Shown here: in pieces, positions 1 to 13,165 of the stretch
How the letters are laid out: each line of letters starts with the position of its first letter
Position numbering within the stretch: the stretch's first letter is position 1
Origin: a virus
Lineage: Duplodnaviria > Heunggongvirae > Uroviricota > Caudoviricetes
DNA: 13,247 nucleotides
Reading direction: 5' to 3' (one strand)
Virus record (IMG/VR): IMGVR_UViG_3300023038_000160
The notes under the pieces: generated by a model
The model's database searches: none
What the model was told of the DNA's origin: nothing
The model's input: only the letters and a program-made list of their open reading frames with translations
Program-made: the position numbers and the translations under genes

Positions 1-22
1 TTCGTGAACATGTCCTTTCAGG

Positions 23-2105: not shown

Positions 2106-2787
2106 TTTTTGCAATGTAGGAGAGAGCACAGGAATCGTTAAAATTAATTATTGGGGTATTTAAGGTTATTTTCAGGTGATTTAAGGGTATTAAACTTGAT
2201 TTAATTGGTTAAAATATAAACAGATAGTTCTGTATCTTATTGATTTATAAGGTTATTTTTAAATAAAGGTAAATAAAAAATAAATAGCTATAAATACATC
2301 TTAATACCTATATCCCTTCCCTTATGGCTAGATTGCGAGAGGTGCTTAACGCGATTTTCAGCGCCCCCCGATCTGGAAAATCCAGAATCCCCAAATATCA
2401 GCAAGGAATTTCTTGCACAATCAACATCGTTTTTACCTATTAAATCATTACACAGAAAGCCTTTCTGTAATGCCTCTCACTAAACTTTCACTAAACACGA
2501 GAATGATCGGTTTTATGTCGGATCTGATGCTAGAAACAGCACCACGTCTCACAAGGGCTGTAAGCGATGAAACCAGTGTTTATGCGGGTGCGGGTCAAAA
2601 TATAGGCCAAAATCCATTTAACATAATAATCATAATATGCACTAAGGAACACATAGAACGCCTTGAATTGATGTATCATGGGAAAAGTGATGGATTTTTT
2701 ACGTAGGAGCACGAGAGGGCTTCTGTTTACTTTTGTGTGCTATGAAATATAATTAAAGGTTTTTTTGTTTTTATTGTGTGAAGTGGT

Positions 2788-3230
2788 GGATTACACAGGG
2801 GAATAGATTAAATGGTGTTCTGTTTATACAGGTTTATTTGTTAGATCAACAATTTGGCATTTCTAAACAGATGTTTGAACGTTGCCAAATGTCTTGACAA
2901 CACAAGAAAAGGGCTTGCTATGCCACGCATTACACGAAATAAGGCTGTAAAAACAAAATAAATTTTAAAATTTGCACAAACGAGAAAACTCGTTCAGAAA
3001 CAAGCAGAACAATTTTTAGCCAACAATTTCTGATGGTGTGCTGTAAGCCGCATTACACAAGGCTTTGCGAAAGTGATGTAAAAGTGAAGAAAGTAAGAAT
3101 TGCACTTTTAAGCTACTTTTTCATTGAATTTTTAGTATGGAATTACACAGGAATAAGTTAGGGATATTCTATGATTTACACAGGGAATATAGGGGGATTA
3201 TGGCACACACATAGAAAGGCATTACACAGG
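2788..3230 (+). repeat. Array of same-orientation motif copies, consensus G(C/A)ATTACACAGG(G)
   Basis: Copies at 2790-2799, 3142-3151, 3221-3230 (exact ATTACACAGG) and variants at 2929-2937, 3052-3062, 3174-3185; further variants outside this span at 4353-4364 and 4435-4444. Three copies extend to ...CAGGG(G)AAT. Irregular spacing, all on the + strand. Confidence 0.6.
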
Positions 3231-3276
3231 GTGAGTGCTATGTGACAAATGGATGTAACGGTAGGTCATAGTGAGC

Positions 3277-3416
3277 TACCCCCTATCAAGTCTAACAGGG
3301 GTTTATAAAGAATAATAAACCGATGATACCCCTATCAATATTGATACCCCTATTAACTTTGATATGACTACCCCTATCAAGTCTGATACCCCTACCCCTA
3401 TCAAAACTGATACCCG
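3277..3416 (+). repeat. Iteron cluster, core (G/C)(A/T)TACCCCTATCAA, candidate replication origin
   Basis: Direct repeats at 3277-3294, 3325-3338, 3343-3356, 3368-3380, 3385-3404 and a partial copy at 3409-3416, spaced 18-24 bp (about two helical turns), immediately followed by a very AT-rich tract (3417-3490) that could act as a DNA unwinding element. Confidence 0.65.
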
Positions 3417-3489
3417 ATAAGAATAAGTTAATAAGAATAATTAAATAATAATTAAATAATATTCTTTATATCTATATATATATGATTTT

Positions 3490-3660
3490 TTGCCTTCCGG
3501 CGTTAGCTTCACTCTCTGGCAAGCAGCCTTACTCCGCTACCTTTCGGGCTACGTTGGCTGGCCCCGTTCCGCTCACACCGAAAGCAAAGCGTTACTTTCT
3601 TCGTGTAACTATCGTTGGCGGTAACGCCCACGAAGAAATACTATTGCGCTATGCGCAGTA
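3490..3660. other. GC-rich structured patch inside the AT-rich noncoding region; candidate cos/pac-like packaging site, primosome site or structured ncRNA
   Basis: Sharp local rise in GC; nested hairpin TTCTTCGTG(3596-3604)...CACGAAGAA(3633-3641) with inner CGTT/AACG stem; motifs CCGTTCCGCTC and GTTACTTTCTTCGTGTAACT resemble, from memory, the terminase-binding R elements and adjacent sequence of lambda cosB. Not verified by alignment. Confidence 0.3.
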
Positions 3661-3722
3661 AGAGTAATCACCTAACCAATCATACTGATTGCTTATGTGT
3701 TAACTCTATCTCTCTACCTCTT

Positions 3723-3880
3723 AATTCCACTTCCTACATTCTGTAGTTGTGTAATTACTCGAAGAGAGAGCGGCTAAAGCTCAATTACACTCTGCTTTCC
3801 TCGTGTAATTTCACTAAGCCTCAATACAATTCCACTTCCTACATTTAATAACTCTCGTTATTCTCTGTAGTTGTGTAATT
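3723..3880 (+). repeat. Split direct repeat: AATTCCACTTCCTACATT x2 and CTGTAGTTGTGTAATT x2
   Basis: 18-mer at 3723-3740 and 3828-3845; 16-mer at 3741-3756 and 3865-3880; the two halves are adjacent in copy 1 and separated by a 19-bp insert in copy 2. GTGTAATT also occurs at 3809-3816 and, inverted, at 3782-3789. Confidence 0.55.
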
Positions 3881-4509
3881 GTTTTCGGTGGAAAAGCCAG
3901 AGGCGACACCGAAAGAGAATTCTGATCTTATTAATCTTATCTATCTTAGTTATCTTACTTACTTATCTTACTTTATCTACTTTATTATTAATAATAGCTT
4001 TATAAGCTCTATGTAGCTCTCTGACGCAAGAAACAGAGTTCAGGAAGGGAATCACCTTAGAAAAGTGTTCTTTGCGTCATAATGTGTTTTATGAAGGATT
4101 CAGAGGTGTTTCATAACAGGAATGTATAGAGGATACTTTAGGTAATTAAAAATAAGGGGTCTAAATGCTTCTCTAACAGCATTAAGCAGGGTAGAGAATG
4201 GAAACGCATTGCCTACACATATAAGCTCACTACAGAGCTTTACATAGCGTTTTATAAAGTGACTCTCTATCTTATATCTACAATCACCTTTTCATATACC
4301 TAACAAATACAAAATAAGCCCCTTAAATAAGCCTCTGGCGAGCTAAACAGCCATTACATAAGGGAATGTATTGCTTTTATCAAAATCTCGTTAGAACGCG
4401 TTTTAGAGCGTTTTAGACAATAATGAAGAATAGCACTACACAGGAGAGCACGAATTGTTAAGCAAAAATGTAAGTGCATGAAAAAGATCAGTTTTTTTGT
4501 GAAAAGGTA

Positions 4510-4538
4510 TTGACAAATGTTTCTTTATATGTAATAAT
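4510..4538 (+). promoter_or_regulatory. Sigma70-type promoter for the regulator/replication operon
   Basis: TTGACA (4510-4515), 17-bp spacer, AATAAT (4533-4538) with extended -10 TG at 4530-4531; a ~100-nt leader containing a short hairpin and T-run precedes the first gene. Confidence 0.5.
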
Positions 4539-4648
4539 AGGTATTAGAGGGACAGAAAACATTCTTCTCTAAATAATCAAAATCAATGCACTTTGAAGCC
4601 GTCAGGCTTGCAAGGTGTTTTTTCTTTTAACTGAATAAGGAGTTTTTT

Positions 4649-4837
4649 ATGAAATGGTTCACATCTGAGCACGTCGTTCAGGCATTTAAAAAAGGTGAGT
4701 TATCTCGCCACCAAGTAGTAATGAATCGTAATATGGCAAGGAGTCGAGGTTATCCAGAGCGAGCTGCTTGCTTCAATGAAGCACTCAAGATTATTGATGA
4801 ACTAAGAAAAAATGAAAAAGAATCTGAAACAGAGTAA
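4649..4837 (+). CDS. Small putative DNA-binding regulator (62 aa)
   Basis: Strong RBS AAGGAG 7 nt upstream; first gene after the promoter; basic helical segment LSRHQVVMNRNMARSRG. Family not recognised. Confidence 0.5.
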   Translation: MKWFTSEHVVQAFKKGELSRHQVVMNRNMARSRGYPERAACFNEALKIIDELRKNEKESETE

Positions 4838-4856
4838 AGAAGAGAAGGAGAAAACT

Positions 4857-5027
4857 ATGAGCGAAACTACAGAAAAGAAAAGACAACCACGCACTTGCTT
4901 TCATATTCCTGATGAAGTATTTCAGGTGTTATTTAAAGAAGCCAGAAGTAGACGTATCACTGTCACAGATTACATTCTTGATATGTTGAAAAGAGAGGCT
5001 GAAACACTCTCAAATAAAAGCAAGTGA
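4857..5027 (+). CDS. Ribbon-helix-helix (CopG/Arc-like) DNA-binding protein (56 aa)
   Basis: Start moved from the track's 4812 to the ATG at 4857, which has AAGGAG 7 nt upstream and avoids overlap with the previous gene; RTCFHIPDEVFQVLFKEARSRRITVTDYILDMLK fits a beta-strand followed by two helices. Confidence 0.55.
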   Translation: MSETTEKKRQPRTCFHIPDEVFQVLFKEARSRRITVTDYILDMLKREAETLSNKSK

Positions 5028-5080
5028 TTTTTATCACCATAGTAGCGCCGTAGAGCGTGATTACATCAAGGAGATTTTTA

Positions 5081-5749
5081 ATGATTAAACATACAAAACC
5101 TTTTTTAGGAATAGATTATGACTTACTAGCAATCACTTCCCTGGTGATTAACGGCAAAACAAAAGAAGTAAAACTACACCATAAGATCATTTATTCTTAT
5201 TTGTTAAGTTTATCTGGCACATACCAAAAGGTAACACCATCTTTGAAAGGTATTGGTGAGCGGTTAGGAGTAGGTACAGATCAGACGGTACGCCGTCATA
5301 TCAAAGATCTTGTTTCTTTTGGATGGTTGAAGATTGAGGAAAGGGCAGGTAGCACAAATGCTTATATTGTCCTTCCTTATGAACAAGAAGCCAAAACACA
5401 ACAAGAAGCTACCGTTAAAGCTGTTCCTGAACAGCTTCCCCCTACAGAAGATAATAAAGAGTCTTCTTTTGATGTTCTTGATGATTGGGATGCGCCTTTG
5501 CCGTGGGAGACGGAAGAAACACCTGTTTCATCAAGTGAAAAGGTAGCTAATGATAATGAGGAGGATGTGTTAGAGAATTTTGCCTCTCTTATCTGCCAGC
5601 AGAAAAACACCAGAACAGGAGGGGCATCCTTTATAGAATTTGCAACATCGTTAGCCTATAAGCACAGGTTAAAGCTACCAAATGGTATTGAGGCATATTT
5701 TTCTAAGAATTACCCAAATGTGTATGATGACTTTGATATTCCATTTTAA
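5081..5749 (+). CDS. Winged-helix protein with acidic C-terminal region; candidate iteron-binding replication initiator
   Basis: ATG at 5081 with AAGGAG 8 nt upstream (the track's 5057 start is a GTG without SD); wHTH-like segment SLKGIGERLGVGTDQTVRRHIKDLVSFGWLKIEE; D/E-rich region in the C-terminal half; located downstream of the iteron cluster. The Rep role is inferred from context. Confidence 0.45.
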   Translation: MIKHTKPFLGIDYDLLAITSLVINGKTKEVKLHHKIIYSYLLSLSGTYQKVTPSLKGIGERLGVGTDQTVRRHIKDLVSFGWLKIEERAGSTNAYIVLPYEQEAKTQQEATVKAVPEQLPPTEDNKESSFDVLDDWDAPLPWETEETPVSSSEKVANDNEEDVLENFASLICQQKNTRTGGASFIEFATSLAYKHRLKLPNGIEAYFSKNYPNVYDDFDIPF

Positions 5750-5760
5750 TAAGGAGGGTT

Positions 5761-6039
5761 ATGATTCAATATTTAGTAAAAAATCAAGTAGACAGAATTC
5801 AGTGTAATGACACAGGAAAACGCATCTACGAAACACTTGCTTACCTCTATAAAGGAAAGCCAACACCGCTAAAATATAGCGATGTGTTACACCGAGCAGG
5901 GTGCTCTGAAGATGGTTTAAAATTCTGGCTTAGACAGCTATCAAATTTCGGTGTTATAGAGATTAAAGAATTATCTTTCTCTACATTCAATCTCAAAAGA
6001 CTAGATAAAGAAATAGACTTCATCTATTCCACTCTCTAA
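5761..6039 (+). CDS. Small winged-helix-like protein (92 aa), function unknown
   Basis: Perfect RBS AAGGAGGG directly upstream; segment KYSDVLHRAGCSEDGLKFWLRQLSNFGVIEIKE resembles a wHTH recognition unit. Confidence 0.5.
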   Translation: MIQYLVKNQVDRIQCNDTGKRIYETLAYLYKGKPTPLKYSDVLHRAGCSEDGLKFWLRQLSNFGVIEIKELSFSTFNLKRLDKEIDFIYSTL

Positions 6040-6946: not shown

Positions 6947-6975
6947 TTGACATTTCATATATTGTATGTTAGTAT
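6947..6975 (+). promoter_or_regulatory. Sigma70-type promoter with extended -10, driving a noncoding unit
   Basis: TTGACA (6947-6952), 17-bp spacer, TAGTAT (6970-6975), TG at 6967-6968. Confidence 0.5.
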
Positions 6976-6979
6976 AATT

Positions 6980-7187
6980 ATATGGGGTGATTATTTTTCC
7001 TTTATTGGTTCGATATTAAAAATTCTTCTTGTCGTTAAAGGGGAGTAAAATCTCCGCTCCCCGCTTCTCCTCCTTAAGTAAATACTGTGTCATTATTACC
7101 TCTTTTTTCCTTTGTTATGCATACATCTTGGAGTGTGCATAACATAGGGTAATTACAAAGGCGGCTTTAAATGCTGCCTTTTATTTT
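6980..7187 (+). ncRNA. Candidate ~200-nt structured noncoding RNA or regulatory leader between promoter and terminator
   Basis: No ORF beyond M-G-stop; alternative hairpins GGGGAG...CTCCCC (7040-7062); perfect 9-bp inverted repeat TGTTATGCA (7113-7121) / TGCATAACA (7136-7144); terminated by the hairpin at 7160-7178 plus T-tract. Confidence 0.3.
7157..7187 (+). terminator. Rho-independent terminator
   Basis: Stem GGCGGC (7160-7165) / GCTGCC (7173-7178) with one G-U pair, 7-nt loop, then TTTTATTTT (7179-7187). Confidence 0.55.
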
Positions 7188-7249
7188 GCCCGTTATGCAA
7201 CTTAAAAGTTGTATTTCTTACTTTAAACAAGGTAACAAGGTTTATATAA

Positions 7250-7462
7250 ATGTTGTTCTTAAATGATAAAGAGCAAATCATCAAGTATAAAGATGAAATG
7301 CTGCGAATTAATCCACAAATTACCGAAATGGTAGCTAAATACGCTGGGTGTTCTGTCGAAGAAGTAGAACGATGTGTTGAAAAATATTTTTCTCCTTCTT
7401 CTCCGTCTACACCTTCCCTTAATGAATTAATCAAATTAAAAGCTAAGGAGATTACTAAATGA
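7250..7462 (+). CDS. Hypothetical protein (70 aa), first gene of the head-like module
   Basis: ORF with weak SD; stop overlaps the next start (ATGA at 7459-7462), implying translational coupling; a 6-bp palindrome CAACTT-AA-AAGTTG lies just upstream. Confidence 0.4.
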   Translation: MLFLNDKEQIIKYKDEMLRINPQITEMVAKYAGCSVEEVERCVEKYFSPSSPSTPSLNELIKLKAKEITK

Positions 7463-7839: not shown

Positions 7840-8868
7840 ATGATTCTAGGTAATGATTACGTTGATTTAGCTCCTCTGTTCTCTGCGCATAGCACTAGAA
7901 ATTATCTACTGTCTACCCTTGACTTCACTGATCCGGTGGGCGTTAGTTCTCATAAAGTAGCTGTTTCCCAGCTTGTCGAAAGCAACGAATCTCTGTTCAA
8001 CAAAGAAACCTCTCGTTTCTCTTCTGAGCATAACGTGACTAAGCGTGAACAAGGTAAAGAATGGCTGATCGAAATCCCGTATTTTCTTCGTGAAGATGTG
8101 ATTCGTCCTTCTGATGTTCAAGGCAAACGTAAACCTGGCACTGATTTTCAGGAAACACTCACTGATATTTATGCTGAGTATGTTGCTAAACATCACGTAG
8201 CGTATCAGCGTACAAAAGAGAGCGTATTGGCTGCATCTCTGTTTAGTGGTCGCACCTACACGCCTAAAACTGATGATGTTCTTATCGAGTGGGGCAAGCT
8301 GTTTAACGTATCAGCTATGAAAGCCACTGTGAACGCTTCCAGCACTGACACCACGAAGATTTTTAAAGAATTTGATCAGATTGCTACTGACATTATCGAG
8401 AAAGCACAAAGCCAGGCGGCTGCTGTAGAGCGTATTGTTGTTTTCTGTAAGCCGGAAGCCTTCTCTGCAATTCGATTCTCTGCGGGTATGGCAAACGCAT
8501 TCCAGTATGTAAGCCCACTGGAAGAGGGAAATGTTGTGTATCAGCGTCGTGACCTGCTACCAGGGGTGACAGCGTTCACTATTCCAGGAACTAACATTGA
8601 TGTTATTAAACTGGTAGATCCGCTACACCTTGCACATATGACTTCTGATGCGGTTGCGGTTCCGAAGTTTGCTAAAGGCTCTAATGTATATCAGAACATC
8701 TACGGGGCTGCTTCCAGCACCTTTGAACTGATTAATTCCGCTCCTGCTGAGGTGTACAGCTATAGCTATGAATCTTCTCGTGGTGATGCTGTTAACGTTG
8801 TTACAGAGAATAGCCAGATGGTTGTAAACCACGGCGTTGGCTTCTCCGTTCAAATCACTGTAAAATAA
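7840..8868 (+). CDS. Putative major capsid protein, lambda gpE-like (342 aa)
   Basis: RBS AAGGA; length matches lambda E (341 aa); by-eye matches to the recalled lambda E sequence: RIVVFCKPEAFSAIRF vs IIVFDPKGWALFRSF, LAASLFSGRTYT vs SAVLKGKYT, FELINSAP vs FTMIQSAP, and a C-terminal FSVQ vs FVSVQ; followed by a strong terminator. Confidence 0.6.
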   Translation: MILGNDYVDLAPLFSAHSTRNYLLSTLDFTDPVGVSSHKVAVSQLVESNESLFNKETSRFSSEHNVTKREQGKEWLIEIPYFLREDVIRPSDVQGKRKPGTDFQETLTDIYAEYVAKHHVAYQRTKESVLAASLFSGRTYTPKTDDVLIEWGKLFNVSAMKATVNASSTDTTKIFKEFDQIATDIIEKAQSQAAAVERIVVFCKPEAFSAIRFSAGMANAFQYVSPLEEGNVVYQRRDLLPGVTAFTIPGTNIDVIKLVDPLHLAHMTSDAVAVPKFAKGSNVYQNIYGAASSTFELINSAPAEVYSYSYESSRGDAVNVVTENSQMVVNHGVGFSVQITVK

Positions 8869-9174: not shown

Positions 9175-11001
9175 ATGTTAGAAATTAACACTTCTAAAAT
9201 TAAGAATACAGTAACATTTAGTGTAGATAAAGACAGCTTAAAAAAAACGAAAGACTCTATTACAGGCTTAAAGGAATTTGCAGAAAACATCAAGCCAGCT
9301 AAATTAAGGTTTGATAGTGTCACTAAAGGCTATAAGAAAGCACAAAGCGAAGTAGACAAGATTGCTCAACAGAAAGCTAAAACAGAAAAACAGAATCAAA
9401 GAGCACAAGCTGCCGCAGCAAGAGCACAGGCAAGGCAACAGGCACAAATAGCAGCACGTAAAGAGAAAGCAGAATTAAAACTTCTCGATGTGTCAAGCTC
9501 TATCAGTGCAATGCACCGTCTCTCTGTAGCGGAACAATACAAAGCTATTGCACAGGCTAGAGAGATAGCAAAACAATATGAGCAAGGCGCTATCTCGCTT
9601 GCACGTATGAATAGCCAGATGAAACGCTTACAACAACAACAACGTAAGATTAATGGCAACAGAAAAGCTCAATTTGCCCCCGTTAAGGGAGGATCAGGGA
9701 ATTCCGCCACTATGGGCGCTCTGTTATTTGGAGGCGCTACGGCTGCTGCTGGCGTGATGGCTGTTAGTAAAACCTCTGAATTTATGGCTAATAGCTTTGC
9801 GAATGCTGAAACACAAGGAGAATTAATCCAACGTGCAAGGCTTGGCGGTGTAGACGTTAACCAGATGTACAACATTACAGAATGGGCGTATAGAAACGGC
9901 GTTGACTCTATGATGGGTGATCAAGGGGCTAGAAAATACCTGGATCAGATGAAAGATGTTAGGGAACGTGCCGCAAAATCCTACAGTGAAGCTGAATTGG
10001 TGAAAGACAAGAAAGGAAAATCTGAATGGAAAGGCGGTGATAACGGTATTAATGAACTTCTAAACATCGGTGTTATTAACAAAAGCGACCTTAAAAAATT
10101 TGCTGATAATCCGGCTGGATTAATTTCTAAGGCTGTTAATGGAATGATGAAAAAAGGGTTTTCAGACTCCCAAATTGGACAACGTTTAGAAGACCTGGGC
10201 GATGATTTGATGCTTACATCAAAATATTGGCAACGTTCCGTTAAAGATGTACAAGAAAGTATTAATCAGCAAAAAGCCTCTGGAAAATGGCTAACAGAAA
10301 CACAGCAAGACTCTATTGTTAAATTCAGAGAACTAAACAGACAGCTTTCACAGCTTTCTGATGCAAGACAAGTAGCATTTGTAGACGGCTTTATGAAATC
10401 TCTCGATCCAAAAGTAACGGAAGAGTTTATGAAAAACCTTTCTAATCTCACTCCGTATTTTACGAAGCTTGGAGAAGCTACAGGAAGTCTCTTTGAAGCC
10501 ATTATGAAGATTGTAAACTGGTTTAATCGTAATGATGATAAGACAGATGCTATTCAGAAAAATATGGGAGATGCACCGCCATTAAGCAATGAAGGAATGA
10601 AACAGAATCTTTCTAACCTCGTTCCTGACCAATATAAAGGCGCTGGCACTGCAACAACTACACCTGATAATACTCATTCCATCTTTAACACAATTAAGGG
10701 ATGGCTTTTCGATGATAATTCTTCTGTGTCAGATGTAAAAATGTCAGTCAGCGAAGCACCGATAACCAATCTCAAACAGGGTGCTTTAAATAATCTTGCA
10801 ATGACAACTCCGGCTTATAATTTATCTCCTGTGTTTAATCTGAATCCTACATTTGAAGTGGTAACAGAGGTTCCTCTTACTATTAATTCTGACACATCAA
10901 GATTAAGCGATTATGTGGATTTTACAGCGAGAGCAAGTCGGGATAGCTTCTTGAAATCATTAACATTAACCAGCTTATCAGGACAATCTAACGGCGGGTA
11001 A
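9175..11001 (+). CDS. Large coiled-coil protein with Gly/Ala-rich hydrophobic segment (608 aa); candidate scaffold, tape-measure-like or ejection-type virion protein
   Basis: RBS AAGGGGGA; N-terminal ~170 aa rich in Q/A/K/R (AQQKAKTEKQNQRAQAAAARAQARQQAQIAARKEKAELK), then GGSGNSATMGALLFGGATAAAGVMAV (~9697-9775), then an S/T/N-rich C-terminal part. Function inferred from composition only. Confidence 0.55.
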   Translation: MLEINTSKIKNTVTFSVDKDSLKKTKDSITGLKEFAENIKPAKLRFDSVTKGYKKAQSEVDKIAQQKAKTEKQNQRAQAAAARAQARQQAQIAARKEKAELKLLDVSSSISAMHRLSVAEQYKAIAQAREIAKQYEQGAISLARMNSQMKRLQQQQRKINGNRKAQFAPVKGGSGNSATMGALLFGGATAAAGVMAVSKTSEFMANSFANAETQGELIQRARLGGVDVNQMYNITEWAYRNGVDSMMGDQGARKYLDQMKDVRERAAKSYSEAELVKDKKGKSEWKGGDNGINELLNIGVINKSDLKKFADNPAGLISKAVNGMMKKGFSDSQIGQRLEDLGDDLMLTSKYWQRSVKDVQESINQQKASGKWLTETQQDSIVKFRELNRQLSQLSDARQVAFVDGFMKSLDPKVTEEFMKNLSNLTPYFTKLGEATGSLFEAIMKIVNWFNRNDDKTDAIQKNMGDAPPLSNEGMKQNLSNLVPDQYKGAGTATTTPDNTHSIFNTIKGWLFDDNSSVSDVKMSVSEAPITNLKQGALNNLAMTTPAYNLSPVFNLNPTFEVVTEVPLTINSDTSRLSDYVDFTARASRDSFLKSLTLTSLSGQSNGG

Positions 11002-11035: not shown

Positions 11036-11749
11036 ATGGCGACCGCCGGGATTTTAACCATACGTGCAGCAAATACTCCAGAACAACACGTTCAGGCTGT
11101 TTACAAAGCAGAACAAGATATAAACTCTACAAAAAACGAAAATAGCAAAGCTAATAAAACAAAAGGAGAAAATGGGTTTGCTATTGTTACCAGTGGCTTG
11201 GCATCTTCTGGCAATGACGTTTATGAAAATTATATGGCACTGGCCTTTGACAGTGTTGACGATGTGAACGTGAGACGTTCGGCAGATGTTACAAGCTACC
11301 CCGTAGAAAATGGTGCTACTGTGTCTGATCACGTTCAAATTAAAAACAATAAGTTTTCTCTTAAAGGAAGGATCACTGAAACACCGATTAAAAGCGATCC
11401 TGGCTTGTTAAAGAGTGCAGGGGTGAACGGGAACAGAAGATCATTAGCTATCGACTACCTGAATCAGATTATGGACAGTAGACAGCCTTTTCTTCTTGTT
11501 ACAGAAAATAAAACTTTTGAGAACGTTGTTTTAACAGGAATCGAATACACAGAAGAGGCAAGCGAATCCCTGGTATTTGATCTTAGCTTTGAGCAAATAA
11601 GATTAGTTTCTTATGGCACTGTGAACACTGTAGCTATCAAAACACAGCCATCTAAGAACATCGGGGCTAATATGAAAAAACGTGTTAACACTGAAAAATC
11701 AAGTAGTGAAGGTGAAGACACTATTACTCCTGCCTTTAAACAGGAATAG
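11036..11749 (+). CDS. Hypothetical protein (237 aa), possible virion-associated protein
   Basis: RBS AAGGAAAA; same operon as the 608-aa gene; no family recognised. Confidence 0.5.
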   Translation: MATAGILTIRAANTPEQHVQAVYKAEQDINSTKNENSKANKTKGENGFAIVTSGLASSGNDVYENYMALAFDSVDDVNVRRSADVTSYPVENGATVSDHVQIKNNKFSLKGRITETPIKSDPGLLKSAGVNGNRRSLAIDYLNQIMDSRQPFLLVTENKTFENVVLTGIEYTEEASESLVFDLSFEQIRLVSYGTVNTVAIKTQPSKNIGANMKKRVNTEKSSSEGEDTITPAFKQE

Positions 11750-11830: not shown

Positions 11831-13165
11831 CTATGGCGTTGTTTTACGCCTTAAATTTGATTTTTTATTGATTGATAAGCCTTTCTCTATTTCAGGGTAG
11901 CGTAGAAGCTCAATATATTTTTTAAGCTCTACTGGAGAAGCTGCATTCTTGCTATATGTGCGGAATGTCTCTGTATTGCCGCGTGTATGGCCCAGGAGAA
12001 GGGCGATCCTGTCTTCTGGAATTTGATTTCGATCAAGAAGCTGTGCTACTCCGTGTCTCAGAGAATGAAACACCTTCCTTTCTGTTCCCTTTTCCCCTAA
12101 AGCCTTTCGTTTAGCTCTTGTAAATCTCTGCGTGTGCCACGTAGAGCGTTTACCATCAGCACGCTCTGTAATGCTGGCGTGATAGAACAAAAAGCCATTA
12201 TGAGGCTTTTCACGCAGCGACAACACCAACGGAGTGATAAGGCTATGTACAGGCACAACACGTGCCGCAGCTTTCGTTTTTCCCTGTGTGATTTCAAAAC
12301 ACAGCACACCTTCGATCTCTTTCACATCGTCTATTGTGAGACTTGCTATCTCATTGATCCGCATACCTGTATATAAACCGATAAGACACAAAGCTATCAT
12401 TTCTTTGTTTTCTGCTGAATTACCGGAAAATACTTGCAACACCTGCAATAGCTCTTTGTTAGAAAATGCCTCGTAGCTCTCTCTACTTTGTGCCACATCA
12501 AGCCTATGCCCTCGCCAGGGGGAGAGCGCCCTTTCTGGCGCATCGTGGTAACGTGATGAAGCTAACTCCCATAGCTGGGCCATTGGGCTGATATAATTTG
12601 CAATTGATTGTTGTGAAAGGGTTTTTTGCATGTGTTCAATCCAGCCTGTAACAGTGGTGCGGCTTACATCTTGCAATGCAATATCAGGCTTTTTACGGTA
12701 GGAGAGAAACATCTCTACCGCTTTTCTTGCCTTAGCTAAAGTGGCTGGCTTCTTCTTCGTGCTGTTAATAGTCAGGTAGATTTCAAGAATTTTAAGCAAT
12801 GATGGACACGAAGACGCTGTATCTTGCATTCTGGTAGCTGTTTTGGCGTATTTAGCCTTACTGCGTAACAGTTCCAGCGTGTTCTCTATTGTGCTGTTTA
12901 CAGGAGCGACACTCTCGCGTAAGCAATGGTATTCATCTGCAATCTGATCACGCTTTCTACGTGCAACACGAAGATTACTTGTGTGCAGACTCCTGACAAA
13001 CGTCCTTTTTCCTTCAAAAAAGGGCTGCATATACACAGGCAGCGTGATCCTTAAATAGTAGTTACCGTAAGAATCACAGATTATGTATTGATTGGGCTTG
13101 TATCTCATAAACTCCCCGGCTAAAGTGTCGGAGCGTTTGTAATGTGAAAATTGATTGTAACGCAT
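11831..13165 (-). CDS. Tyrosine recombinase / phage-type integrase (444 aa) with N-terminal arm-binding-like domain
   Basis: Catalytic signature visible in the translation: TGMRINEI (Arg), HSLRHG (His-x-x-Arg), LLGHTRGNTETFRTYS (His and catalytic Tyr). An alternative start at 13108 (MRYKPNQ..., GGGGAG 3 nt upstream) is possible. Codon composition looks more GC-rich than the rest of the island. Confidence 0.85.
   Translation of the reverse strand: MRYNQFSHYKRSDTLAGEFMRYKPNQYIICDSYGNYYLRITLPVYMQPFFEGKRTFVRSLHTSNLRVARRKRDQIADEYHCLRESVAPVNSTIENTLELLRSKAKYAKTATRMQDTASSCPSLLKILEIYLTINSTKKKPATLAKARKAVEMFLSYRKKPDIALQDVSRTTVTGWIEHMQKTLSQQSIANYISPMAQLWELASSRYHDAPERALSPWRGHRLDVAQSRESYEAFSNKELLQVLQVFSGNSAENKEMIALCLIGLYTGMRINEIASLTIDDVKEIEGVLCFEITQGKTKAAARVVPVHSLITPLVLSLREKPHNGFLFYHASITERADGKRSTWHTQRFTRAKRKALGEKGTERKVFHSLRHGVAQLLDRNQIPEDRIALLLGHTRGNTETFRTYSKNAASPVELKKYIELLRYPEIEKGLSINKKSNLRRKTTP

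Follow-up and report, generated by a model that had tools for sequence, protein, structure and literature searches.

The element and its control region

The window, i.e. the whole stretch of 13,247 nucleotides that was analysed, is a 13-kb integrative element located at a tRNA-Thr gene (thrW). It encodes its own capsid, tape-measure and tail proteins and carries no terminase gene. Its early operon displays the gene order p62-RHH-Rep-p92, p62 and p92 being proteins of 62 and 92 aa. Matches to the noncoding region of the element were found in 750 of 5,426 complete genomes, and a search of genome contigs with p62 yielded nothing beyond Escherichia and MAG fragments almost identical to the element of E. 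coli. The tRNA is where contigs of 12.5-13.4 kb break, so that they correspond to integrated copies; for this reason, their ends were rejected as a clue to the physical termini.

The element looks like an undescribed satellite of phi92-like (Justusliebigvirus) phages, because its tail genes match those of these phages and because positions 2333-2372 are identical to the boundary of their terminal repeat. Indeed, positions 2327-2372 match phage positions 363-318 (E = 2e-12), a segment that spans the terminal-repeat boundary (343/344), which maps to 2346/2347 in the window. No paper tying satellites to phi92-like phages, nor any describing this element, was found in the library searched.

A gene-free control region of about 2 kb carries about ten copies of a short DNA word, GCATTACACAGG, nearly all on one strand. 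The noncoding setting that had been claimed for these copies holds, since the sole ORF of more than 55 aa there (3482-3661) is disrupted by indels in homologues. The relevant features are as follows.

2327-2372 (+): mimic of the inner boundary of the helper direct terminal repeat; 44/46 identical, 40/40 over 2333-2372
2445-2460 (+): copy TCATTACACAGAAAGC, 5' arm of a small palindrome (2445-2472), just outside the range first proposed for the family
2788-2803 (+): copy GGATTACACAGGGGAA, exact 10-mer; a promoter-like sequence (2726-2753) lies about 35 bp upstream; copy found only in the thrW-type left arm
2927-2942 (+): copy GCATTACACGAAATAA
3050-3065 (+): copy GCATTACACAAGGCTT, conserved block 1, kept in type A and in type B, the sister lineage
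3099-3105 (+): variant heptamer ATTGCAC, block 1, invariant in all loci
3140-3155 (+): copy GAATTACACAGGAATA, exact 10-mer, block 1, kept in both lineages
3173-3188 (+): copy GATTTACACAGGGAAT
3219-3234 (+): copy GCATTACACAGGGTGA, exact 10-mer, best profile score; the type B orthologous site is TCATTGCACAGATG
3280-3480 (+): five CCCCTATCAA iterons (3280-3408), then an AT-rich stretch; presumed origin, flanked by motif copies
3749 (-), 3784 (+), 3803 (-), 3873 (-): four exact ATTACAC heptamers right of the origin, spanning 3749-3879
4179-4194 (+): weak copy GCATTAAGCAGGGTAG
4351-4366 (+): copy CCATTACATAAGGGAA, conserved block 2
4433-4448 (+): copy GCACTACACAGGAGAG; the early promoter (4510-4538) has its -35 hexamer about 65 bp further downstream
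5761-6039 (+): gene for p92, a predicted winged-helix protein and the proposed binder; contains motif-like 5795 (-) and 5805 (+)
7105-7152: inverted pair GCATAACA(A/T)AGG (7105-, 7137+), a hairpin in the late-operon leader
650 (-), 5805 (+), 7105 (-), 7137 (+): motif-like copies outside the region

Reality and conservation of the motif family

Exact matches to ATTACACAGG are located at 2790, 3142 and 3221, and copies with one mismatch at 3052, 3175, 4435 and, just beyond the range of the original prediction, 2447; all of them lie on the + strand. Looser copies occur at 2929 (ATTACACGAA) and 4354 (ATTACATAAGG). The whole window contains 12 matches to ATTACACAGG with at most one mismatch for 0.70 expected, a count reached in none of 200 shuffles, and exact ATTACAC occurs 12 times for 2.06 expected. 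As the word had been chosen post hoc, the largest family of non-overlapping 10-mers, with at most one mismatch and on both strands, was also sought in 2400-4650. This family is that of GCATTACACA, with eight members, whereas shuffled sequences gave a mean of 4.88 and a maximum of 7 (0/120 reached 8). The same-strand, irregularly spaced family with three exact 10-mers put forward in the original prediction is thus clearly in excess over chance. A 13-nt profile of the motif gives 5.7 hits/kb in 2713-4648, whereas the coding part of the window has 0.93/kb and a phage genome of 148 kb has 0.30/kb, and 10 of the 11 hits within 2713-4648 are on the + strand.

The consensus is (G)(C/A)ATTACAC(A)(G/A)G, in which TACAC(A) alone is almost invariant. 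The CAGGG(G)AAT tail that had been noticed on three copies is indeed present at 2790, 3175 and 4354, with a CAGGAAT form at 3142. Only a 12-19-nt core is common to the copies, their flanks being unrelated. The left copies are separated by 139, 123, 90, 33 and 46 bp, an irregular spacing that displays no helical phase. Nor does the motif show clear dyad symmetry, an unusual situation for the target of a dimeric winged-helix regulator.

Among type A loci, conservation of the motif cores does not clearly exceed that of their flanks: on the left side, 51% of the core columns are variable versus 66% of the others, and on the right side 54% versus 20%. In a comparison of about 60 related loci, the array remains constant when the Rep/iteron type and the RHH protein are exchanged, and two block 1 copies are kept across lineages whose surrounding sequence has diverged. 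T(T/C)ATTGCAC copies of type B take the place of the type A ATTACAC, among them the orthologue of the 3221 copy and one copy in the late leader. Type B has two strong motif copies and no statistically significant array; therefore, the array is not essential to the family.

The related GCATAACA palindromes reported at 870-905 and 7113-7144 do exist and give strong hairpins on folding (z = -5.1 and -6.6, respectively), and the 7105-7152 hairpin sits between a promoter (6947-6975) and a terminator (7157-7181). Three hairpins have the heptamers in 3749-3879 as their stems, AATT(A/C)CAC...GTGTAATT, and the hairpins of 3480-3930 are about 97% or more identical among type A copies. Sliding-window folding identified 3560-3920 as the only strongly structured zone and gave no excess folding energy across the left array (2760-3240) on either strand (z of about -2 to +1). 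In an Rfam search at E up to 1, the tRNA was the sole match with a meaningful score.

Several simple readings of the copies were rejected. Taken on the opposite strand as TGTAAT of a sigma-70 promoter, they have no fitting -35 hexamer or extended -10 in view. As small ORFs, they lie in inconsistent frames, and block 1 carries a frameshift in locus L001. Serine recombinase res or inversion sites do not fit either, as the window and other thrW-type loci are devoid of a recombinase yet keep the array.

Candidate binders encoded by the element

The general idea of the original prediction, several sites bound by a second DNA-binding protein, still fits best, this protein being other than the Rep that binds the iterons. 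Comparison of loci narrows the possible binders among the Rep-like protein, the RHH protein and the winged-helix proteins.

The iterons right of 3275 are of the CCCCTATCAA type in the window and in loci L001 and L002 (Rep at least 92% identical), of the TTGGAAGTGGT type in L004 (Rep 36%) and of the CCCCACAGAA/CTGTTA type in L003 and L005 (Rep 33%). Thus, the hypervariable iteron block co-varies with Rep types spanning 92%, 48-60% and 33-36% identity. No such change affects the left array of any type A locus. Likewise, the RHH proteins of type A loci with the same array are 98%, 56% or 45-48% identical, and that of L004 is an unrelated CopG-like protein. The constancy of the array while Rep, iterons and RHH are swapped argues against both proteins, which are therefore disfavoured as binders. 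The copies do not behave as Rep-binding iterons by their position either, the nearest being separated from the first true iteron by about 50 bp and from the AT-rich stretch by about 180 bp, nor as RHH operator or centromere arrays of the ParR, omega or Arc type, as the repeats are not co-inherited with one RHH protein. The p62 protein was also rejected as binder: L027 carries a full array and a 63%-identical, type-B-like p62. Its model is a plain three-helix bundle without significant fold match, and its match to the NCBIfam 'RNA-binding regulator' is weak (E = 0.023, far below the model cut-off).

The 92-aa protein is, on sequence and model grounds, the favoured binder. It models as a winged helix (order H-beta-H-H-beta-beta; pLDDT 78 in the AlphaFold model), whose best Foldseek match is the DNA-binding domain of CodY (E = 9.5e-4), with further matches to ArsR/SmtB, PefI, BlaI and the centromere binders TubR and AspA. 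As for a winged-helix regulator with a multi-site array, p92 is co-inherited with the sites: it is found at 89-100% identity in all array-bearing loci with enough sequence except L002, a truncated element that stops right after Rep, has the array without p92 and may be decayed. In the metagenome set, all 23 loci encoding p92 at 89% identity or more carry 7-14 + strand hits upstream. Furthermore, the recombinants L004 and L027 both keep p92 and the array, and p62 and p92 are the only window-like proteins left in L004, a minimal recombinant element. Shared descent could nevertheless explain much of this association, because the co-occurrence amounts to one lineage and two informative recombinants. 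The more diverged relatives of p92 (68-77% identity) belong to remnants that lack the noncoding region. No p92 homologue was found among 50,697 phage records; p92 thus resembles the motif, which is not enriched in a phi92-like genome or its terminal noncoding region, in being particular to the satellite. In type B, the homologue at the same position is 21% identical and differs in its third helix, a difference that parallels the change from ATTACAC to ATTGCAC and speaks for p92 as the binder.

The suggestion that the copies act as partition-like centromere sites is unsupported, because the element encodes no partition NTPase: none of the 17 window ORFs screened has a ParA-, ParM- or TubZ-like match in PHROGs, Pfam or NCBIfam. 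Handcuffing or looping across the origin and operator function may each apply.

A proposed array of p92 sites around the origin

The copies may constitute a dispersed operator or architectural array for p92 around the origin, a tentative explanation to which we give slightly less than an even chance. According to this explanation, the ATTACAC copies would be recognition sites for a DNA-binding protein encoded by the element, most probably the stand-alone p92, the last gene product of the early operon. Seven or eight co-oriented sites (2445-3234) would lie to the left of the origin, inverted heptamer pairs to its right in the hairpin zone (3749-3879), and further co-oriented sites (4179-4448) would lead to the early promoter, motif-like sites being present as well in the leader of the late operon and close to the beginning of the p92 gene. 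By coating or bridging these sites, p92 could form a nucleoprotein complex that would govern the firing of the origin and/or transcription across the control region, with feedback on the early and late operons. We infer both the binding of p92 and the function of the complex from sequence patterns and the fold model.

Alternative explanations

Rather unlikely, in our view, is that the copies are packaging or terminal-repeat signals, i.e. recognition or phasing sites for helper-type terminase machinery that cuts and packages satellite concatemers; p92 or a helper protein would then tag satellite DNA in the manner of a small terminase subunit. In favour of this, the phi92-type concatemer junction, read as its reverse complement, runs collinear with the noncoding region: beyond the boundary mimic, 2842-2891 matches phage 184-135 (E = 1.6e-5), 4144-4184 matches PHB05 146798-146758 (E = 0.002), and 3099-3112 weakly resembles phage 23-10, the sequence ATTGCACTTTTAAG around 3099-3105 being similar to that found 10-23 nt from the left end of phi92-type genomes. 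The copies of 2445-3065 map inside the repeat-equivalent stretch (about 2347-3121), the phage repeat has one motif-like AGAAAGGCATTACTCA at the matching place, and the element is devoid of a terminase gene. However, the motif is not enriched in the phages. The PHB05 genome (147.7 kb) contains nine matches with at most one mismatch, about the number expected by chance, and 0.30 profile hits/kb, and the phi92 junction region has 0.44 hits/kb at a profile threshold of 8, not above the PHB05 genome at that threshold. A helper terminase is therefore not expected to read the motif, and mimicry of a helper promoter or other cis-motif was rejected on the same count. Moreover, other copies (4179-4448, the late leader and within the p92 gene) are distant from the repeat-equivalent stretch, and the best fold matches of p92 are transcription regulators; p92 is also far below the size of known small terminase subunits.

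A related proposal, which we judge unlikely, is that the array and p92 form a satellite-specific 'self-marking' system, in which p92 would polymerise on or bridge co-oriented sites inside and beside the helper terminal-repeat mimic and around the origin, and would thereby couple replication to hijacked phi92-type packaging. If true, this would be a recognition of DNA for packaging without any terminase gene, in previously undescribed E. coli satellites of large lytic Stephanstirmvirinae phages.

The chance seems small that the copies are mere remains of local duplications or of recombination joints, without present function. Iteron modules and left arms are swapped in this highly mosaic region, the type A cores do not stand out from their flanks by conservation, and the sister lineage manages with two strong copies, all of which would suit relics. 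Duplication would not readily account for unrelated flanks around a short shared core, for copies at distant and unrelated places (650, 5805, 7105/7137), for the strong strand bias or for the retention of two block 1 copies across diverged lineages.

Host DnaA boxes near the origin occur in many iteron plasmids, and the copies, which flank the iteron/AT-rich origin, might be low-affinity DnaA boxes, or sites for another host factor, helping to open or regulate it. Their core TACACA corresponds to the 3' two-thirds of the oriC R2 box TTATACACA, and the 3175 copy (ATTTACACA) is one mismatch from TTWTNCACA. We regard this as quite improbable. Most copies read (C/A/G)ATTACACA, with two mismatches at box positions 1-2; compared by eye with TTWTNCACA, most copies have two mismatches, one copy has one and one has three, and the copies as a set do not match that consensus, although their sequence alone would still allow low-affinity binding. 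In addition, conservation runs 3' into AGG(G), outside the DnaA box, and the spacing of 33-139 bp is unlike that of the closely packed oriC arrays. Nor would a fixed host factor predict the change to ATTGCAC that accompanies the p92 homologue of the sister lineage.

Finally, the motif could act as RNA, a long transcript from 2726-2753 carrying repeated AUUACACAGGGAAU bound by a CsrA-type GGA reader or by p62. The strict same-strand bias, the conserved sigma-70-like promoter just upstream of the first copy (TTTACT-16-TATAAT; TTGACT in L001 and L003), the ability of several copies that contain ACA..GGA to form AUU/AAU mini-stems, the weak 'RNA-binding regulator' match of p62 and the strong hairpins formed by the GCATAACA palindromes in transcribed leaders would fit, but this is very improbable: the left array has neither excess folding energy nor an Rfam match, several copies lack GGA, including the conserved 3052 copy, the recombinase-type left arm keeps the core copies without that promoter, and the p62 type does not track the array (L027). 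A CsrB-like protein-sponge RNA was rejected for 2760-3240 on the same evidence, i.e. no structure beyond chance, no Rfam match and GGA absent from several copies.

Relationships with known systems

The motif family is a variation on a known theme, because multi-site arrays for small proteins are familiar in the control of origins and operons. As in the TubR-tubC, AspA and PapI/PefI-type systems, a small stand-alone winged-helix protein is encoded beside the replication module and goes with many short repeated sites that extend over noncoding DNA, TubR, AspA and PefI being among the fold matches of p92. Known centromere arrays, however, are tightly packed and work with a partition NTPase, whereas the sites of the satellite are 33-139 bp apart and co-oriented, with no NTPase and a putative binding of p92. 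The short direct repeats beside an AT-rich origin, with pairable sites on both sides, also recall lambda-O-type and plasmid Rep iterons and their handcuffing. Unlike in those systems, the element has separate true iterons (CCCCTATCAA, five) that change with Rep, while the ATTACAC family does not.

Satellites such as P4, with its ori and crr repeats, and the Vibrio PLE possess, as here, a large noncoding region with an origin and several repeat families. The P4 and PLE repeats are bound by the replication initiator of the satellite itself, whereas the ATTACAC family is independent of the initiator and its region also mimics the helper terminal repeat. The interest of the array comes from this setting, an apparently unreported kind of E. 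coli phage satellite in which a gene-free control region of about 2 kb unites helper mimicry, a swappable iteron origin and a motif array. If the binder of the array were identified, the regulatory logic of the whole family would become accessible, i.e. silence, helper sensing, replication and packaging, and such satellites could influence phage therapy using phi92-like phages.

T5-like phages harbour a comparable stretch, the Noncoding Repeat Region 3, a gene-free region of 1.2-1.6 kb that is dense in repeats and palindromes, lies beside the terminal repeat and contains DnaA boxes (Davison, bioRxiv 10.1101/866236). The T5 boxes fit the DnaA consensus, whereas the satellite copies do not, and the tail genes and terminal-repeat mimic indicate phi92-like rather than T5-like helpers. 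Positions 4389-4445 nevertheless match the left edge of this T5-like region in many phages, weakly (about 78-90% identity over 29-57 nt, E = 0.004-0.5); this short match of borderline significance includes CACTACACAGGA in some of them.

Motif statistics

The ATTACAC-like 10-mers dispersed between 2788 and 4444 were originally predicted to form a multi-site array for a second DNA-binding protein. The motif family is real: the window holds 12 copies of ATTACACAGG with at most one mismatch, for 0.70 expected, and 12 exact copies of ATTACAC, for 2.06 expected. As the word had been picked after reading the sequence, an unbiased search for the largest 10-mer family was run on 2400-4650. This family, GCATTACACA, has 8 non-overlapping members, a size attained by none of 120 dinucleotide-preserving shuffles (mean 4.9, maximum 7), and thus exceeds chance. 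With a 13-nt profile derived from nine copies, the noncoding region scores 5.7 hits/kb, compared with 0.93/kb for the remaining window and 0.30/kb for a phage genome of 148 kb; of the 11 noncoding hits, 10 are on the + strand. The copies share the consensus (G)(C/A)ATTACAC(A)(G/A)G(G), plus a looser ..AAT tail; among homologues, near-fixation is limited to (T/A/C)TACAC(A). The array is a variation on a known kind, and the element surrounding it merits separate attention.

The element and its likely helper phages

Genes of the element
23-98, tRNA-Thr(CGT), at the window start
4649-4837, + strand, p62, 62-aa protein
4812-5027, + strand, Arc-like ribbon-helix-helix (RHH) protein
5057-5749, + strand, Rep, lambda-O/DnaD-like initiator with an HTH_36 domain
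5761-6039, + strand, p92, 92-aa protein
between p92 and the capsid gene, + strand, several small proteins
7840-8868, + strand, major capsid protein, Phage_cap_E family
9175-11001, + strand, tape-measure protein
11036-11749, + strand, 237-aa tail protein
11831-13165, minus strand, tyrosine integrase, at the window end

No terminase, portal or partition gene was found among the window genes, nor any conserved ORF in 2713-4648. Copies of the element in E. coli genomes adjoin proA and thrW. Of the 5,426 complete genomes of this species, 750 contain DNA related to the noncoding region, nearly always on the chromosome.

Stephanstirmvirinae phages, such as the Justusliebigvirus phages phi92 and PHB05 and the Phapecoctavirus group, have counterparts of the tape-measure protein (~32-37% identity) and of the 237-aa tail protein (58-61%), and PHB05 shares the gene order decoration-like protein, capsid, small protein, tape measure, tail protein. 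The likeness extends to noncoding DNA. PHB05 318-357 is identical to window 2333-2372 (40/40). Window 2327-2372 agrees at 44 of 46 bases with phi92-like phages at the point where their 343-bp direct terminal repeat has its inner boundary, and this 46-mer is found in 62 of them. Since the annotated repeat of phi92 is 1-343, the match spans its inner boundary, which falls at window 2346|2347. Two further collinear matches, both to terminal noncoding DNA of the phage, link phage 184-135 to window 2842-2891 (E = 1.6e-5, with a TTGGCA...TGCCAA inverted repeat in common) and PHB05 146798-146758 to window 4144-4184 (E = 0.002); phage 23-10 and 223-208 weakly resemble window 3099-3112 and 3213-3228. 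The noncoding region is therefore collinear with the reverse complement of a helper-type concatemer junction. Because it combines phi92-like tail genes and its own capsid gene with the lack of a terminase, the element looks like a satellite of lytic phages of the Justusliebigvirus type, and is best read, from sequence, as a satellite of phi92-like phages. No paper describing such satellites was found in the literature library searched, and the element probably represents a new satellite family. The lone motif-like sequence within the phage repeat is that of 223-208, AGAAAGGCATTACTCA; as the phi92-like phage shows no enrichment of the motif, the array belongs to the satellite.

The left arm also carries a 183-aa protein (1476-2027; signal-peptide-like N-terminus, PHROG 2578, function unknown), almost confined to the window copy and partial in locus L027, which is probably inserted cargo. 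In all loci of both noncoding lineages that have the left arm, a 50-aa basic protein (704-856) is 94-100% identical; its start codon is closely preceded by a minus-strand motif copy (650-665), and a GCATAACACATC hairpin (865-912, z = -5.1) lies 3' of its gene.

Layout of the control region

Features of the noncoding region
2726-2753, promoter-like site
2788, 2927, 3050, 3140, 3173, 3219, plus 2445, + strand, co-oriented left motif copies
3099, variant ATTGCAC
3280-3408, five CCCCTATCAA iterons
to ~3480, AT-rich stretch 3' of the iterons
3560-3920, GC-richer zone with about seven hairpins (folding z = -7.3)
between the hairpin zone and the right copies, second AT-rich stretch
4179, 4351, 4433, looser co-oriented right copies
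4510-4538, near-consensus early promoter, TTGACA-17-AATAAT
4588-4618, conserved leader hairpin, then U-run, 5' of the p62 ribosome-binding site and start codon

As copies lie to the left and right of the iterons and AT-rich stretch, the motif brackets the presumed origin; the left copies are oriented towards it and inverted pairs occur on the right. Copy 2788 is ~35 bp 3' of the promoter-like site and copy 4433 ~65 bp 5' of the early promoter, copies 5795/5805 fall within the start of the p92 gene, and an inverted pair lies in the leader of the late operon. Stems of three hairpins of the 3560-3920 zone are built from AATT(A/C)CAC and GTGTAATT. The leader hairpin with its U-run may represent an attenuator or a ~90-nt small RNA.

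The hairpin zone, possibly a priming signal, an RNA or a packaging element, is nearly invariant in window-like (type A) loci and replaced by unrelated sequence in the other noncoding lineage (type B). A 19-nt loop insert sits in its third hairpin in the window and its first in most homologues, a difference suggestive of gene conversion between two 36-nt repeats. A near-consensus strong promoter (6947-6975) precedes the late operon; after it comes a ~200-nt leader with a 12-bp GCAUAACA hairpin (7113-7144) directly 5' of an intrinsic terminator (7157-7181) and U-run. This promoter-leader-terminator layout (6947-7250) is that of lambda PR'-tR' and suggests by analogy control by antitermination, possibly via a helper factor.

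Comparison across loci

Some 60 related loci were assembled from E. coli genomes, IMG/VR and metagenomes. Their noncoding regions form two lineages, type A and type B, the latter including the ST131 copy L003. Both conserve block 1 (~3045-3155; copies 3050 and 3140 plus ATTGCAC 3099) and block 2 (~4290-4445; copy 4351). The iteron block right of 3275 is hypervariable and tracks the Rep type, while the array does not change with it, which disfavours Rep as the binder. RHH is likewise disfavoured: the same array accompanies RHH proteins of 98%, 56% or 45-48% identity, and an unrelated CopG-like protein replaces RHH in L004, a minimal element that has a Rep and RHH of its own and no structural genes. 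A complete array also occurs in L027 with a type-B-like p62 (63% identical); p62 is modelled as a plain three-helix bundle, for which no fold match was found.

Across the window and L001-L027, the iteron cassette (3275-3410 and equivalents) shows at least 4-5 repeat types between conserved flanks, each with a different Rep, a pattern that indicates frequent swapping of origin/initiator modules. Within block 2, 4370-4445 (CGTTAGAACGCGTTTTAGAGCGTTTTAGA ... CACTACACAGGA) weakly matches ~150 T5-like phages (E = 0.004-0.5) at the left edge of noncoding Repeat Region 3 in their terminal repeat; in phage EscoHU1 (L028, 9001-9058) the match precedes what by eye resembles a LexA box.

p92 as candidate binder

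The original prediction is supported in part: a multi-site array stands as the best reading, with p92 as the best candidate binder. The p92 model is a winged helix (pLDDT 78), and among PDB structures Foldseek matches it best to the CodY DNA-binding domain (E = 9.5e-4), ArsR/SmtB, PefI, BlaI, TubR and AspA; a homologue was found in none of 50,697 phage records. Every type A locus with sufficient sequence, L004 included, encodes p92 at 89-100% identity, and all 23 metagenome loci with p92 at >=89% identity have 7-14 + strand motif hits upstream, the basis of this association being for the most part shared ancestry plus two recombinants. The sole exception is L002, where the array is present and the element stops just after Rep. 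The type B homologue, encoded at the equivalent place after Rep, is 21% identical (pairwise E = 7e-9), differs at most positions of the third helix and is frameshifted in L003 and L005. Type B has T(T/C)ATTGCAC copies in place of ATTACAC: TCATTGCACAG is orthologous to the 3219 site, two or three minus-strand copies are found right of the origin, and the late leader has one. Strong ATTACAC copies number only two there, and the unbiased test found no statistically significant family in type B. Motif and p92 thus covary across two lineages, which is suggestive but not proof.

Interpretation of the array

We tentatively favour, at somewhat less than even odds, dispersed candidate p92 sites around the origin and control region. 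p92 would both shape the origin region and feed back on transcription, roles suited by the placement of copies near promoters, the p92 start and the late leader; it might act by repression, by looping across the origin or by marking DNA for packaging. The spacing is irregular, and in type A the motif cores are not clearly better conserved than their flanks.

A packaging or terminal-repeat function is unlikely: four copies do lie inside the repeat-equivalent stretch (~2347-3121) of an element without terminase, but the motif is not shared by the helper. That the copies are relics of duplication is less probable still, given their unrelated flanks, their strand bias and their retention in both lineages. 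Weak DnaA boxes are slightly more doubtful again; their TACACA core is shared with the oriC R2 box, but the fit fails at positions 1-2 and the motif shifts in the sister lineage. Least probable is an RNA-level motif, which would fit the strand bias and the promoter upstream, but the left array lacks structure and recombinase-type left arms lack the promoter.

Short relatives and Rep tails

Apart from an integrase, a serine recombinase and defence-type cargo (GmrSD or HNH), the short relatives L002, L004 and L005, in E. coli chromosomes near thiM or tRNA-Gly, consist of just the 2-kb noncoding region and the p62-RHH-Rep(-p92) operon, without capsid or tail genes. Noncoding region and operon together thus act as a portable module. 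In L083 (metagenome contig OMGG01000255.1), block 2, p62, RHH and Rep are apparently deleted and p92 lies only ~200 nt past the hairpin zone. Unrelated Rep types all end in an acidic ...DDFDIPF tail (window 5729-5749; L004 6225-6245), replaced by YDSLPF in type B. A similar sequence, DFDDDIPF, forms the C-terminal tip of E. coli SSB, which recruits many replication proteins; the Rep tail may mimic SSB and so recruit host replisome factors.
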